In this document: positions 7,766 to 13,240 of the stretch, one piece after another
Position numbering within the stretch: position 1 is the stretch's first letter
How the letters are laid out: each line of letters opens with the position of its first letter
IMG/VR virus record: IMGVR_UViG_641522625_000005
Direction: 5' to 3' (one strand)
Length of the DNA stretch: 23,396 nucleotides
DNA from: a virus
Taxonomy: Duplodnaviria > Heunggongvirae > Uroviricota > Caudoviricetes
Position numbers and translations under genes: made by a program
The notes under the pieces: model-generated
The model's input: the letters and a program-made list of their open reading frames with translations, nothing else
Told to the model about the DNA's origin: nothing
Databases searched by the model: none

Positions 7766-8242
7766 TTAAGTTCCAGTTTTTGTGATGTTCTGGCTTTTCC
7801 GTTCAGATTCAAGAGCTTTCAGATACTTACCCACTTTCATTTCCATCGCTGCTATGTAGGCGCGAACATCGTGGTCAACCCAATCTGGTTCTGTAGCATT
7901 TCCAGATAACAGGAAAGCTACAATCGCTCTTATTTCATCAGAGGCTGCTTGATAAAGGTTGTTTATATCTAAAAGTTCACTTTTTGTATCTGAATTGGTG
8001 GGGGTTGGTATGGGGTATTCGTTAAGCCCCCAATGCTCTGGACCAACAACATCAGAAAAGAAACGCCATAATTCTGGAAGTTTATCTTTACTTATAGAGC
8101 CTTTCTTAATCCAGTCATAAATTGATGGTGGTTGGACTTTAAAGTGGCGTGCGACCTCCGCCTTTGATTTGACGGATCCCGATGCGATTTTTTTGTTAAT
8201 GGCCTGCTCTATCGCTCGGCCTAAGTCTTTACCACTAAGCAT
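7766..8242 (-). CDS. racR: RacR prophage repressor (CI-like), 158 aa
   Basis: 158-aa ORF, ATG at 8242..8240 with AGGAG RBS; N-terminal HTH-like segment (SKAEVARHFKVQPPSIYDWIKKG); divergent from Cro-like ydaS. Confidence 0.9.
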   Translation of the reverse strand: MLSGKDLGRAIEQAINKKIASGSVKSKAEVARHFKVQPPSIYDWIKKGSISKDKLPELWRFFSDVVGPEHWGLNEYPIPTPTNSDTKSELLDINNLYQAASDEIRAIVAFLLSGNATEPDWVDHDVRAYIAAMEMKVGKYLKALESERKSQNITKTGT

Positions 8243-8294
8243 TGCTTAATATTCTCCTATGCGCATTACATTAGGCAATCCCTACCCTTACTGC

Positions 8295-8339
8295 ATTAGG
8301 CACAGCCTATTGACAATTGCGTTAGGCGTCGCCTAATAT
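8295..8339 (+). promoter_or_regulatory. Rightward PR-like promoter with overlapping operator (OR-like)
   Basis: -35 TTGACA 8310..8315, -10 TAATAT 8334..8339 (18-nt spacer) about 27 nt upstream of the ydaS ATG; ATTAGGCA/TTAGGCG repeats; 26-bp element ATTAGGCACAGCCTATTGACAATTGC. Confidence 0.65.
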
Positions 8340-8365
8340 TTCTGTGTGTTTTTGGAGTTCATTCG

Positions 8366-8662
8366 ATGAAAAAAGAGAACTATTCATTCAAGCAAGCTTG
8401 TGCTGTTGTCGGTGGGCAATCAGCAATGGCTAGGCTTTTAGGTGTATCACCTCCAAGCGTAAATCAATGGATCAAAGGGGTACGTCAATTGCCTGCCGAG
8501 AGATGTCCAGCAATTGAACGTGCAACAAGAGGTGAGGTTCTGTGCGAAGAACTTCGTCCTGATATTGACTGGTCATATTTACGACGTTCGGCATGTTGTT
8601 CGCAGAATATGTCAGTGAAGCAACTAAATGACAGTAACAAATCCTCATTTGATCATACCTGA
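8366..8662 (+). CDS. ydaS: YdaS Cro-like HTH protein, 98 aa
   Basis: ATG at 8366 with GGAG RBS; HTH segment (QSAMARLLGVSPPSVNQWIKG); first gene of the rightward operon. Confidence 0.85.
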   Translation: MKKENYSFKQACAVVGGQSAMARLLGVSPPSVNQWIKGVRQLPAERCPAIERATRGEVLCEELRPDIDWSYLRRSACCSQNMSVKQLNDSNKSSFDHT

Positions 8663-8684
8663 AACATCAAGAGGCAAATGATTC

Positions 8685-9107
8685 ATGAAAATCAAGCATG
8701 AGCACATCGAATCAGTGTTGTTTGCCCTAGCAGCCGAAAAAGGGCAGGCATGGGTAGCCAATGCAATTACTGAAGAATATCTGCGCCAGGGGGGCGGCGA
8801 ATTGCCCCTGGTTCCAGGCAAGGACTGGAACAATCAGCAGAATATCTATCACCGTTGGTTGAAAGGTGAAACGAAAACGCAAAGAGAAAAAATTCAGAAG
8901 CTGATCCCAGCAATTCTGGCAATCCTTCCGCGCGAGCTGCGTCACCGACTCTGCATCTTCGATACCCTGGAACGCCGTGCATTACTGGCGGCGCAGGAAG
9001 CGTTAAGTACGGCAATTGATGCGCATGATGATGCAGTCCAAGCCGTTTACCGGAAAGCGCATTTCAGCGGCGGCGGTTCTTCCGACGATTCTGTCATTGT
9101 TCATTAA
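8685..9107 (+). CDS. ydaT: YdaT, 140 aa (CII-position protein; reported toxic when derepressed)
   Basis: ATG at 8685 with AAGAGG RBS; 140 aa; second gene after the Cro-like gene. Confidence 0.85.
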   Translation: MKIKHEHIESVLFALAAEKGQAWVANAITEEYLRQGGGELPLVPGKDWNNQQNIYHRWLKGETKTQREKIQKLIPAILAILPRELRHRLCIFDTLERRALLAAQEALSTAIDAHDDAVQAVYRKAHFSGGGSSDDSVIVH

Positions 9108-9119
9108 GCAAAAGTTTCC

Positions 9120-9977
9120 ATGCTGTTTGTGCTTATTCTAAGCCACCGGGCAGCATCATACGGGGCAATTATGGCCGCATTACCATACATGCAACTGTAC
9201 ATAGCTGATTACCTGGCTGACACCATGCATTTGTCAGCAGAGGAGCATGGTGCGTATTTGTTGCTGATGTTCAATTACTGGCAAACAGGAAAGCCAATAC
9301 CTAAAAACAGGCTGGCAAAAATTGCCCGTCTGACTAACGAGCGATGGGCTGATGTTGAACCATCCTTGCAGGAGTTTTTTTGCGATAACGGCGAGGAATG
9401 GGTGCATCTTCGGATTGAGGAAGATCTGGCATCAGTCAGGGAAAAATTAACCAAAAAATCAGCCGCAGGAAAAGCATCTGTTCAGGCCAGAAGAAGCAGA
9501 AAGGAAGCAGATGTTCAAACAAAACAAGAGAGAAATTTAACAGGTGTTCAAACAGATGTTGAAGTGGTGTTTGAACATGATGTCAACACAAAGGCAACTA
9601 ATAAAGATACAGATAAAGATCTAAAAACAGATCCCCCCCTAAATCCCCCCCGGGGGAATCGAGGTGTCAAAAAGTTTGACCCTCTGGATATTACTTTGCC
9701 GAACTGGATTTCTGTCTCGCTTTGGCGTGAGTGGGTTGAATTTCGCCAGGCATTGCGAAAACCGATTCGAACGGAGCAGGGCGCTAACGGGGCGATACGG
9801 GAGCTGGAAAAATTCCGCCAGCAGGGTTTTTCACCTGAGCAGGTGATTCGACACAGCATCGCCAATGAATACCAGGGCTTGTTCGCGCCGAAAGGTGTTC
9901 GACCTGAGACGTTACTCCGACAGGTTAACACCGTCTCGTTACCGGATAGTGCGATCCCGCCAGGCTTCAGGGGGTAA
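9120..9977 (+). CDS. ydaU: YdaU, putative replication initiator (O-like position), 285 aa
   Basis: 285-aa ORF directly upstream of the DnaC-like gene; contains an internal iteron/AT-rich cluster in a low-complexity K/D/T/P linker. The ATG at 9120 has a weak RBS; the internal ATG at 9171 is an alternative start. Confidence 0.8.
   Translation: MLFVLILSHRAASYGAIMAALPYMQLYIADYLADTMHLSAEEHGAYLLLMFNYWQTGKPIPKNRLAKIARLTNERWADVEPSLQEFFCDNGEEWVHLRIEEDLASVREKLTKKSAAGKASVQARRSRKEADVQTKQERNLTGVQTDVEVVFEHDVNTKATNKDTDKDLKTDPPLNPPRGNRGVKKFDPLDITLPNWISVSLWREWVEFRQALRKPIRTEQGANGAIRELEKFRQQGFSPEQVIRHSIANEYQGLFAPKGVRPETLLRQVNTVSLPDSAIPPGFRG
9508..9660. repeat. Iteron cluster + AT-rich tract + C7-TAAAT-C7-G5 tract (candidate prophage origin inside ydaU)
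   Basis: ATGTTCAAACA at 9511..9521, GTGTTCAAACA at 9544..9554, inverted copy TGTTTGAACA at 9568..9577, degenerate GATGTCAACACA at 9579..9590; then AT-rich 9593..9632; then CCCCCCC (9633..9639) TAAAT CCCCCCC (9645..9651) GGGGG (9652..9656). Confidence 0.45.
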
Positions 9978-9983
9978 CTGACC

Positions 9984-10730
9984 ATGAAAAATATTGCGAC
10001 AGGCGATGTTCTTGAACGTATCCGCAGACTGGCCCCGTCACATGTAACCGCGCCATTCAAGACGGTAGCGGAGTGGCGCGAGTGGCAACTTTCCGAAGGC
10101 CAGAAACGTTGTGAGGAGATCAACCGTCAGAATCGTCAGTTGCGGGTGGAAAAAATTCTGAATCGCTCTGGCATCCAGCCATTGCACCGCAAATGCTCGT
10201 TTTCGAATTACCAGGTGCAGAACGAAGGGCAGCGATACGCGTTGAGTCAGGCGAAATCCATCGCTGATGAACTGATGACCGGGTGTACAAATTTTGCGTT
10301 CAGCGGAAAACCTGGTACCGGGAAGAACCACTTAGCGGCAGCTATCGGGAATCGCCTGCTGAAAGACGGTCAGACAGTGATTGTGGTTACCGTGGCTGAT
10401 GTTATGAGTGCCCTGCACGCCAGCTATGACGATGGGCAGTCAGGCGAAAAATTTTTGCGGGAACTGTGCGAAGTGGATCTGCTGGTTCTTGATGAAATTG
10501 GCATTCAGCGCGAGACGAAAAACGAGCAGGTGGTACTGCACCAGATTGTTGATCGCCGGACAGCGTCGATGCGCAGCGTGGGGATGCTGACAAACCTGAA
10601 CTATGAGGCCATGAAAACATTGCTCGGCGAGCGGATTATGGATCGCATGACCATGAACGGCGGGCGATGGGTGAATTTTAACTGGGAGAGCTGGCGTCCG
10701 AATGTCGTCCAGCCAGGAATTGCGAAGTAA
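9984..10730 (+). CDS. ydaV: DnaC-like helicase loader (IstB-like AAA+ ATPase), 248 aa
   Basis: Walker [11 protein letters not shown], Walker B-like LLVLDEIG; ATG at 9984, 6 nt after the ydaU stop. Confidence 0.9.
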
Positions 10731-11782: not shown

Positions 11783-13240
11783 ATGAATACATCTCATGTA
11801 AGAGTTGTTACTCATATGTGTGGGTTCCTGGTTTGGCTCTATAGTCTTTCAATGTTGCCACCAATGGTTGTAGCATTGTTTTATAAAGAAAAAAGCCTGT
11901 TTGTTTTCTTTATAACTTTCGTTATATTTTTTTGCATTGGTGGCGGAGCGTGGTATACAACTAAGAAATCTGGCATTCAATTACGTACCCGTGATGGGTT
12001 TATTATAATTGTAATGTTTTGGATTTTGTTTTCTGTTATTAGTGCATTCCCTTTATGGATTGACTCAGAACTTAATTTAACGTTCATTGATGCTCTGTTT
12101 GAAGGGGTTTCTGGAATAACAACAACAGGAGCAACTGTAATTGATGATGTTAGTTCATTACCTCGGGCATATTTGTACTATCGGTCACAGTTAAATTTTA
12201 TAGGTGGTTTAGGAGTTATTGTTCTGGCGGTTGCTGTATTGCCATTATTGGGTATTGGTGGTGCAAAGCTTTATCAGTCAGAAATGCCGGGGCCATTTAA
12301 GGATGACAAACTCACTCCCCGCCTGGCCGATACGTCACGGACACTGTGGATAACTTATTCTTTATTAGGTATTGCTTGTATTGTCTGTTATAGACTTGCA
12401 GGAATGCCTTTGTTTGATGCTATTTGTCACGGGATTTCCACAGTTTCGCTTGGTGGTTTCTCAACTCATAGCGAGAGTATCGGATATTTTAATAACTATT
12501 TGGTTGAGCTGGTGGCTGGTTCTTTTTCCCTGCTATCGGCTTTCAACTTCACTCTTTGGTATATTGTTATTAGCAGGAAAACGATAAAACCTTTAATCAG
12601 AGATATTGAACTTCGTTTCTTTCTGTTAATAGCCTTAGGGGTGATCATTGTTACCTCTTTCCAGGTCTGGCATATAGGTATGTATGACTTGCATGGAAGT
12701 TTTATTCATTCGTTTTTTCTTGCCAGCTCCATGCTCACTGATAATGGTTTAGCTACGCAGGATTATGCAAGTTGGCCCACGCACACGATAGTGTTTTTGC
12801 TGTTGTCAAGTTTCTTTGGGGGATGTATAGGTTCAACTTGTGGTGGAATTAAGTCACTTCGATTTCTTATACTTTTCAAACAAAGCAAACACGAGATAAA
12901 TCAGCTTTCTCATCCCAGAGCGTTGTTGAGTGTAAATGTAGGAGGGAAGATAGTTACAGATCGTGTAATGAGGTCTGTATGGAGTTTCTTTTTTCTTTAT
13001 ACTCTCTTCACGGTGTTTTTTATACTGGTGTTAAATGGTATGGGATATGATTTTCTTACATCATTTGCAACAGTGGCTGCATGTATTAATAATATGGGAT
13101 TAGGTTTTGGGGCTACTGCATCGTCATTCGGAGTGCTTAATGACATTGCAAAATGCTTAATGTGCATAGCTATGATTCTTGGTCGCCTTGAAATTTATCC
13201 TGTTATTATATTGTTTTCAGGTTTTTTTTGGCGCTCCTAA
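11783..13240 (+). CDS. trkG: TrkG K+ uptake transporter (TrkH/TrkG family), 485 aa
   Basis: ATG at 11783 (MNTSHVRVVTHMCGFLVWLYSL...); polytopic membrane protein; strongly AT-rich compared with the flanking prophage DNA (cargo gene). Confidence 0.9.
   Translation: MNTSHVRVVTHMCGFLVWLYSLSMLPPMVVALFYKEKSLFVFFITFVIFFCIGGGAWYTTKKSGIQLRTRDGFIIIVMFWILFSVISAFPLWIDSELNLTFIDALFEGVSGITTTGATVIDDVSSLPRAYLYYRSQLNFIGGLGVIVLAVAVLPLLGIGGAKLYQSEMPGPFKDDKLTPRLADTSRTLWITYSLLGIACIVCYRLAGMPLFDAICHGISTVSLGGFSTHSESIGYFNNYLVELVAGSFSLLSAFNFTLWYIVISRKTIKPLIRDIELRFFLLIALGVIIVTSFQVWHIGMYDLHGSFIHSFFLASSMLTDNGLATQDYASWPTHTIVFLLLSSFFGGCIGSTCGGIKSLRFLILFKQSKHEINQLSHPRALLSVNVGGKIVTDRVMRSVWSFFFLYTLFTVFFILVLNGMGYDFLTSFATVAACINNMGLGFGATASSFGVLNDIAKCLMCIAMILGRLEIYPVIILFSGFFWRS

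Follow-up and report, generated by a model that had tools for sequence, protein, structure and literature searches.

The Rac prophage of Escherichia coli K-12 very likely carries its replication origin within its own initiator gene, ydaU. The window analysed here is a 23,396-bp stretch of DNA that corresponds to this cryptic prophage. Its ydaU-ydaV stretch is 100% identical to E. coli MG1655, and window coordinates are converted to those of NC_000913.3 by adding 1,411,999. We place the candidate origin with good confidence at 9472-9656 (MG1655 approximately 1,421,471-1,421,655), and it is most probably the genetically defined oriJ. An array of short phased repeats (iterons) and an A-rich tract occupy 9472-9632, between the DUF1376 domain of the YdaU protein (aa 22-104) and its C-terminal module (from ~9657 on). 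The architecture follows the classical lambdoid pattern, but with a non-classical, uncharacterised initiator family (DUF1376).

Phased repeats and an A-rich tract inside ydaU

The preliminary description of this DNA listed three copies of an 11-bp motif in ydaU, two direct and one inverted, with two degenerate copies nearby. Two of the three are exact matches to ATGTTCAAACA, while the third, GTGTTCAAACA, agrees at only 10 of 11 positions (cores 1 to 3 in Table 1). The degenerate copies are present as ATGTTGAAGTG at 9556-9566 and ATGTCAACACA at 9580-9590. No further match to ATGTTCAAACA with up to one mismatch occurs in the whole window. With up to two mismatches there are 12 matches against 11.2 expected by chance, so the signal lies in the clustering of the motif and not in its count. 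In a whole-window scan the ydaU cluster is the strongest repeat cluster, above the putative operators between racR and ydaS. A repeat search additionally returned a 14-nucleotide (nt) family at 9472, 9505, 9538 and 9550, with spacings of 33, 33 and 12.

Written in an 11-bp register, the region resolves into an array with the unit family consensus NAAC(R)NNNGTT. Its first part reads AAGCATCTGTT / CAGGCCAGAAG / AAGCAGAAAGG / AAGCAGATGTT and runs into 22 decayed nucleotides, after which the second part continues as TAACAGGTGTT / CAAACAGATGTT / GAAGTGGTGTT / TGAACATGATGT / CAACACAAAGG / CAACTAATAAA. Strong units end at 9482, 9515, 9548, 9560, 9571 and 9583, and the decayed units occupy 9483-9504 and 9516-9537. 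The 11-mer ATGTTCAAACA spans the junction of two units (...ATGTT/CAAACA) and is nearly its own reverse complement (TGTT-CA-AACA and TGTT-TG-AACA). The exact copy on the - strand is therefore another unit of the array with the central dinucleotide flipped, and the units have dyad character. Three good cores and degenerate units, with TGTT-NN-AACA dyads, follow each other at 33, 12, 11 and 12 bp.

We measured the periodicity as the best 77-nt window of lag-11 autocorrelation in each gene, compared with 1000 codon permutations. In Rac ydaU this window starts at gene nt 346 (~9516-9592), and its score was reached by 5 of the 1000 permutations. Since the 11-bp period is not divisible by 3, codon or peptide repeats cannot produce the array.

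The AT-rich stretch and the C7/C7/G5 tract described earlier both stand. A or T fills 32 of the 44 positions of 9589-9632 (25 A, 7 T), and the A-rich tract at 9595-9632 has a G+C fraction of 0.33 and two GATC sites (9618 and 9630). Within 8243-10730, intergenic regions included, duplex stability is lowest at this tract, for windows of 30, 40 and 60 bp alike. The preliminary placement of these elements in the linker of ydaU was correct; "directly upstream" of ydaV was loose, as the repeat cluster is ~330 bp upstream of ydaV. No convincing internal promoter or terminator was found in or near ydaU.

The C/G tract consists of C7 (9633-9639), TAAAT, C7 (9645-9651) and G5 (9652-9656), and CCCCCGGGGG forms an inverted repeat. 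All four of its prolines are encoded by CCC, compared with 1 of 28 elsewhere in ydaSTUV (hypergeometric p ~1.4e-4). Relatives contain variants of the tract: C5-TAAAT-C5-AC-G6 (locus L059), a form seen in six relatives at 59% identity; C5-TAA-C5-GCAAGC-G5 in a Bordetella phage, where it is a perfect hairpin; and C5-TTTAAT-C5-TAA-G3 in Gifsy-1. The CCC bias and the recurring forms indicate that the homopolymer character of the C runs is probably under selection at the DNA level. The comparison across strains gives no support to the suggestion that the C7 runs are slippage-prone: a ±1 length change in a C run was seen in none of the 41 Rac-type (C7-tract) loci. C7/C7/G5 is kept in 39 of them; of the other two, one shows G4 and the other an in-frame duplication of 12 bp.

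A 12-bp in-frame duplication of CCCCCCCTAAAT (PPLNPPLNPP) is located at 1960-1998 of locus L051. Relatives (L073-L094, gene nt ~420-450) differ in how many copies they have of the hexamers (GATACA)n and (AAGAAT)n, from DPDTD to DTDTDTDTDTDTD. Both observations imply that the A-rich tract expands and contracts in frame.

Conservation and exchange of the repeats among initiator genes

We gathered DUF1376 initiator genes from annotated phages and IMG/VR (80 loci) and scanned 19 non-redundant representatives. In 15 of the 19, the highest-scoring lag-11 window begins just past the DUF1376 domain, at gene nt 314-382, and in nine relatives its score was reached by none of 1000 permutations. An NAAC...GTT array with an 11-bp period is found at the equivalent place in DUF1376 initiator genes of E. 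coli, Pseudomonas, Bordetella and Moraxella phages. Examples are ACGACCGATCA ACACCAGTTCA ACGGCTGTTCA ACAGCCGTACA ACGACTGTGCA in a Bordetella phage, ACGACCGTTCA ACGACCGTTGA AATCCCGTTGA ACGAAAACTCA in Pseudomonas phage UFJF_PfDIW6 and CAACGGAACGA CAACGGGTGTT CAACGGGCGTT GAATCACCGTT ... in locus L073. The hexamers GTT(C/G)AA and TT(C/G)AAC are 3.7-fold denser at gene nt 300-450 than in the rest of the genes (Fisher p = 6e-7). Every member continues 3' of the array with A/C-rich, G/T-poor simple repeats, such as (GATACA)n, (GAACCA)5, a period-7 AACCAAT or a period-8 TTAACCCA. In a Rac-related group with 47-60% amino-acid identity, the DNA of the tract is kept as ACTAATAAAGAT(NNNGAT)nCTAAAAGA, with GATC sites. 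Absence of the repeats from homologous ydaU genes had been named as evidence against an origin; we find the opposite, as phased arrays are kept in divergent homologues. Pseudomonas phages that have no ydaS/ydaT still keep CGTTSAACG units, which shows that the iteron type tracks DUF1376 and not the neighbouring genes.

The constraint on the linker was assessed in a codon alignment of 13 representatives, as the share of identical codons among pairs with the same amino acid. In the linker columns (Rac 9519-9630) this share is 0.68-0.99 at an amino-acid identity of 0.24-0.62, compared with 0.39-0.55 (one bin 0.67) at an identity of 0.62-0.97 in the columns of the DUF1376 domain. Two alignment bins covering most of the A-rich tract reach 0.81 and 0.99. 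The sequence TAACGACCGTTCAACGACCGTT occurs exactly in one Pseudomonas and one Moraxella phage, which amounts to seven consecutive identical codon choices in proteins that are each only ~25-47% identical to YdaU in the alignment. This pattern indicates that selection on the linker acts at the DNA level. With a DNA signal constraining the protein linker, ydaU would be a clear case of overlapping codes.

Could the repeats instead be a by-product of a low-complexity protein linker (DVQT/GVQT/DVEV, (DT)n), arising by slippage or from linker properties and having no function as DNA? The linker does contain repeated peptides (DVQT...GVQT, DTDKD), relatives have different numbers of hexamers coding for (DT)n, (KN)n and (NQ)n, and STxVE and TNKD are peptide motifs alignable throughout the family. 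However, the period of 11 is not divisible by 3, nor are the periods of 5, 7 and 8 seen in other members, and the inverted Rac copy reads VFEH, not DVQT. The greater conservation of synonymous sites than in the folded domain, the seven codons shared by the Pseudomonas and Moraxella phages, and the different repeats that unrelated N-terminal domains carry in the equivalent slot also contradict such an origin of the repeats, and we regard it as very unlikely. STxVE and TNKD are themselves translations of the iteron cores TCAAC and GTTGAA and of the AT-rich tract, from which we infer that the peptide conservation is a consequence of the DNA signal and not its cause.

Cores 2 and 3 and the A-rich tract are unaltered in nearly all close alleles sampled, core 1 is decayed in Rac-SA53-type alleles, and the origin segment of the phage record vB_EcoS-683R6 is identical to that of Rac. 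The alleles bear on a further explanation, in which pairing of the inverted copies would give ydaU mRNA a structured element, for example for translation or stability control. The + strand RNA of 9495-9665 folds at z = -2.1 (equalled by 7 of 200 shuffles), with core 1 pairing to core 3. This score is marginal, the other strand gives z = -1.4, and there is no match in Rfam. The mutated core 1 of the Rac-SA53-type alleles is accompanied by no compensatory change that we could see, and the direct 11-bp arrays of the relatives cannot form this hairpin. An mRNA element is thus extremely improbable.

Iteron-like repeats are also found within the part of the gene that codes for the DUF1376 domain. 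In Rac, ATGTTCAATTA and GATGTTGAACCA are located at 9267-9277 and 9351-9362. Two Pseudomonas phages (L007/L009) have an 11-bp-phased CGACCGTTG array at gene nt ~133-215, with scores reached by 1 and 38 of 1000 permutations. These repeats could constitute an auxiliary iteron cluster or be a by-product of the conserved peptide NDRW..VE.

Exchange of modules between prophages is, judged from sequence comparison, the strongest argument for an origin at this site. In a megablast search of the ydaU-ydaV stretch against 5,426 complete E. coli genomes, the match of many prophages to Rac begins only at query position ~497 or ~601, that is, at the A-rich tract or just after the C/G tract. The A-rich tract is the exchange junction between the N- and C-terminal modules of these prophages, with breakpoints at query 488-506. 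The Rac-type C-terminal module (84-99%) is common to initiators with unrelated N-terminal domains, and ydaV is retained with it. Each type brings its own repeats. The phrog_2509-type N-terminus has 7-10 copies of GTTAC/GTAAC (scores reached by 1 and 0 of 2000 codon permutations), an O-family-type initiator has four copies of CATCRGGTCAAAATG, and an HTH_36-type initiator has two full copies of GTTGACCCGTCAAAT and further partial ones. Together with Gifsy-1 and Rac, five N-terminal types have their repeats in the linker upstream of an A-rich tract with GATCT, and a DnaC-like gene comes next. The C-tract and the KKFDPL C-terminal module are present as in Rac in the phrog_2509 and Gifsy-1 types, while the O-family and HTH_36 types share the C-terminal tail only.

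The Gifsy-1 prophage provides a link to lambda. Its O protein contains a Phage_rep_O domain (PF04492, E = 1.5e-30), and its gene contains six lambda-type, ATCCCCGAAAAGGGGGA-like iterons. These are followed by ...AATATAAAAGATCTAACCCCCTTTAATCCCCCTAAGGG, a KVKFDPL...PTGFRG C-terminal domain and a DnaC homologue. This right-hand half is homologous to the Rac AAAGATCTAAAAACAGATCCCCCCCTAAATCCCCCCCGGGGG...KKFDPL...PPGFRG, and both systems can be written as ...AAAGATCTAA-C5-T(T/A)AAT-C5..., with iterons immediately upstream and the DnaC-like gene behind the module. The left halves differ, being of O type with ATCCCCGAAAAGGGGGA-type iterons in Gifsy-1 and DUF1376 with TGTTCAAACA-type units in Rac. The Rac repeats thus fill the slot that O-type iterons take in a bona fide lambdoid initiator. 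Conversely, DUF1376 and the array are combined with other C-terminal modules in Rac-SA53 and many IMG/VR loci, and some of these modules contain the Pfam DnaT domain. In lambda, the origin is paired with the N-terminal half of O, and the helicase-delivery partner with the C-terminal half. The Rac-type modules follow the same rule, with the iterons accompanying the N-terminal domain and the C-terminal module accompanying the loader. Lambdoid modules would then be rebuilt at the origin itself, with the N-terminal domain and its iterons swapped against the AT-rich tract, C-terminal domain and loader. The lambda-like origin embedded in its initiator gene, proposed in the preliminary description, is accordingly supported by the conserved position, the synonymous constraint and the module swaps, including that of Gifsy-1.

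In E. coli 2010C_5028 (L002, 701-2871), an element of the insertion sequence (IS) family IS3 is inserted in the A-rich tract, at the equivalent of ~9607-9614, and splits ydaU. An apparent mosaic breakpoint at query position 488 was rejected, as it represents an IS3-family insertion instead.

A mosaic junction with an IS insertion would also fit a different kind of cis-acting site, and repeat arrays are typical of operators and centromere-like sites. The array could on this account bind YdaT, YdaS or RacR, serve autoregulation or as a roadblock, take part in partition or packaging, or be a recombination hotspot for module exchange. The presumed RacR/YdaS operators, however, have a different motif and lie at 8242-8337, and no site of the YdaT type (TTGATT-N6-AATCAA) is present in 9450-9700. 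The iteron type follows the N-terminal domain of the initiator across hosts whose neighbouring genes differ, the Gifsy-1 slot holds lambda-type iterons beside a Phage_rep_O domain, and the stability minimum comes after the array, as in origins. We consider it highly improbable that such a site explains the array, which may have a regulatory or recombination role in addition to that of an origin.

Initiator proteins and a proposed mechanism

The sole Pfam domain found in YdaU is DUF1376 (PF07120, E=2.7e-26), and its PHROG matches are annotated as 'primosomal protein' and 'replication initiation O-like'. YdaU has no match to PF04492; it would be O-like in its working, yet lies outside the Phage_rep_O family. 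A first search for YdaU homologues returned only E. coli entries at ~100% identity. We built the DUF1376 model on an alignment of 55 sequences, gathered with the domain of the Bordetella phage as the query. The AlphaFold2 model of YdaU 1-110 (predicted local distance difference test, pLDDT, 85; predicted template modelling score, pTM, 0.73) consists of helices, a beta-hairpin and a long C-terminal helix. It matches winged-helix domains, among them those of origin-recognition and plasmid-initiator proteins, and DUF1376 accordingly models as a winged-helix fold. A DUF1376 profile search of the PDB gave no significant match. A single-sequence AlphaFold2 model of full-length YdaU was poor (pLDDT 51) and was discarded, a Foldseek search on that model being meaningless.

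The annotated ydaU start gives 17 extra residues (MLFVLILSHRAASYGAI) that are present in no homologue. Homologues from E. coli to Pseudomonas all start with MAALPYMQLY, which corresponds to the ATG at 9171. The start of ydaU is therefore probably mis-annotated.

The C-terminus of YdaU matches DnaT (PDB 2ru8 and 9zbt, E 0.003-0.012), mainly over the last ~21 residues. Its tail VNTVSLPDSAIPPGFRG (last 17 residues, 9924-9974) nearly equals the DnaT tail VNTVSEPDSQIPPGFRG, with the pattern ...VN.VS.PD..IPPGFRG. The four other initiator types encoded ahead of a DnaC-like gene all have this tail at their C-terminus, and it is likely a common docking peptide for the helicase or its loader. YdaV matches the Pfam families IstB_IS21 (9e-20) and Bac_DnaA (9e-9) and the PHROG 'DnaC-like helicase loader' (1.7e-85). 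The C-terminal domain of DnaT forms filaments on single-stranded DNA and marks the DnaB loading site (PMC13377028), and by analogy this suggests a similar role for the C-terminal module of YdaU.

These features can be combined into a lambda-like scheme. Loss of RacR de-represses ydaS/T and ydaU-W (bioRxiv 10.64898/2026.09.06.749655). Transcription of ydaS-T-U-V would then cross the origin, and may by analogy with lambda affect it. The predicted winged helix of YdaU would bind the TGTT-NN-AACA units and form an O-some-like complex. Because the units are about one helical turn apart, the bound proteins would lie on one face of the DNA. The resulting stress would melt the A-rich tract, whose computed stability is the lowest of the region. 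The C-terminal module and YdaV, given their domain homology and co-inheritance, would then bring host DnaB onto the opened strands. The C7/C7/G5 inverted repeat would mark the right edge of the origin, where its role might be that of a GC barrier against unwinding or of a structural element.

It is possible, although we put this forward only tentatively, that DUF1376 proteins are widespread, unrecognised initiators of phages and prophages. Their winged helix would read 11-bp-phased iterons in the DNA of their own linker, and a DnaT-like C-terminal module would nucleate on A-rich single-stranded DNA and mark the site of DnaB/DnaC loading. One small protein would then perform a DnaA-like two-step, the host restart pair dnaT-dnaC and the phage modules would share ancestry, and the 'cryptic' Rac of K-12 would still self-amplify after loss of RacR. 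Origin-repeat recognition would provide a working function for DUF1376. Fusions of DUF1376 to HNH nuclease domains (PF01844 and PF14279) occur in some metagenomic proteins (P0146, P0147, P0153), and many others are short and consist of DUF1376 alone, which implies that the domain is used outside YdaU-type initiators too.

Relation to known systems, oriJ and neighbouring features

As in lambda and the Stx phages 933W and P27, the initiator gene has the candidate origin at its centre, and the AT-rich tract comes directly after the iterons. The gene is located downstream of cro/cII-like genes, as in lambda, so that early transcription would cross the origin. Origins of the lambda type have four to six 19-bp palindromes, while the Rac units are ~10-11 bp long at a phasing of 11-12 bp. 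Lambda-type iterons are located together with an AT-rich tract in mid-gene O, and experiments on lambda and Stx phages have established them as origin sites (PMC7466680). In contrast to lambda, Rac has DUF1376 and not Phage_rep_O, a DnaC/IstB-type AAA+ loader and not lambda P, and a C7/C7/G5 tract at the right edge.

The order of adaptor gene and DnaC-type loader gene, as well as the nearly equal tails, resemble E. coli DnaT-DnaC, where dnaT lies just upstream of dnaC. DnaT differs in having no DUF1376 domain, and is targeted to forks by PriA/PriB rather than to an origin by iterons. The iteron plasmids pSC101, R6K, P1 and F have their origins outside the rep gene, with 17-22-bp iterons and normally with DnaA boxes. 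The Rac array differs in lying inside the gene, with ~11-bp units and no DnaA box near. The three sites matching the DnaA box TTWTNCACA in the window are all at position 12345 or beyond, which is neutral for an origin of the lambda type.

The assignment to oriJ draws on the location in the same prophage and on the ydaU site being the sole candidate with iterons and an AT-rich tract in the 23.4-kb window. Diaz and Pritchard (1978-79) reportedly defined oriJ genetically as the Rac origin. The title of Potrykus et al. (2000, Plasmid 44:111) also speaks for an active oriJ in Rac, and oriJ plasmids have been reported. NC_000913.3 has no rep_origin feature at ydaU, and no base-level placement of oriJ was found in the full texts covered by a literature search. 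The 'oriJ' primers of PMC3945230 were considered as a mapping and rejected. They amplify 155 bp at 10241-10395, inside ydaV and 600-800 bp from the array, and thus report the regional copy number, not the position of the origin. The coordinates given here would place, at base level, an origin known genetically since the late 1970s.

Several points weigh against the origin reading. The evidence presented here is computational, and binding, unwinding and autonomous replication are predictions. The K-12 array is partly decayed, with two ~22-bp stretches that lack the consensus and only three good cores. Distant members of the family differ, as L010 has no repeats and L011, L013 and L014 have other motifs. 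The alignable STxVE and TNKD motifs mean that some conservation is possibly at the protein level. The Pfam DnaT DNA-binding domain (PF17948), present in the sister DUF1376 proteins L005 and L073, was not detected in Rac YdaU, and the likeness to DnaT is firm only in the last ~21 residues. Finally, Rac has been called 'replication-defective' (PMC11014345).

Some of these points would also fit an origin by descent that is now a dead relic in K-12, with oriJ activity, if real, located elsewhere or dependent on host functions only. Besides the description as replication-defective and the two stretches of the array without consensus, the more regular arrays of the relatives and the cryptic state of Rac, with truncated late genes, agree with a relic. 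Against it, the ydaU and ydaV open reading frames are intact, cores 2 and 3 and the A-rich tract are preserved in nearly all close alleles, and a phage record contains the identical segment. Furthermore, an active origin, oriJ, has been attributed to Rac (PMC3945230), and Rac copy number rises transiently after loss of RacR (PMC11014345). For lambda, two iterons beside the AT-rich tract suffice in vitro, according to the work as cited in PMC7466680. We therefore consider a relic unlikely and favour a functional origin in ydaU. The published statements on Rac replication conflict (PMC11014345 and PMC3945230), and the proposed coordinates make the difference between 'replication-defective' and 'active origin' directly testable. 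They also bear on the copy-number and toxicity effects after loss of RacR and on the stability of K-12 derivatives.

The gene order of Rac is intR ... recET ... kilR, sieB, racR, ydaS, ydaT, ydaU, ydaV, ydaW', rzoR, trkG. The features of the ydaU region are listed in Table 1.

Table 1 Coordinates of the candidate origin elements, the genes that contain or follow them, and the upstream control region
Feature	Position	Strand	Basis
ydaU, putative initiator gene holding the candidate origin	9120..9977	+	Open reading frame, Pfam DUF1376, PHROG
DUF1376-coding region, predicted winged-helix DNA-binding domain, proposed iteron reader	9183..9431	+	
Iteron array, ~12 units of 11-12 bp	9472..9605	.	Repeats, lag-11 period, relatives, synonymous constraint
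Iteron core 1, ATGTTCAAACA, dyad TGTT-CA-AACA	9511..9521	+	Exact match
Iteron core 2, GTGTTCAAACA	9544..9554	+	1 mismatch to ATGTTCAAACA (10/11)
Iteron core 3, exact inverted copy, TGTT-TG-AACA on + strand	9568..9578	-	
A-rich tract, putative DNA-unwinding element, CAACTAATAAAGATACAGATAAAGATCTAAAAACAGAT	9595..9632	.	Stability minimum
C7-TAAAT-C7-G5 tract, encodes PPLNPPRG at the start of the C-terminal module	9633..9656	.	
YdaU C-terminal module, putative helicase/loader-recruiting part	9657..9977	+	DnaT match, module sharing
ydaV, DnaC/IstB-like AAA+ helicase loader	9984..10730	+	Pfam, PHROG
racR-ydaS intergenic control region, promoter-like site 8310-8339, operator repeats	8243..8365	+	

Upstream of the origin, the racR-ydaS region contains three direct copies of TRCATTAGGC (8267, 8292 and 8318) and inverted copies at 8242 and 8329, which are presumably RacR/YdaS operators. 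The inverted repeat ATGATTCATGAAAATCAA at 8678-8695 straddles the ydaT start and, with one mismatch, fits TTGATT-N6-AATCAA, the YdaT (CII-like) site of CP-933P. Upstream of trkG, AGTAAAATCTT recurs in four loose copies within the AT-rich segment 11641-11740, whose duplex stability is among the lowest in the window. The trkG insertion (moron) probably joins the phage sequence in this segment.

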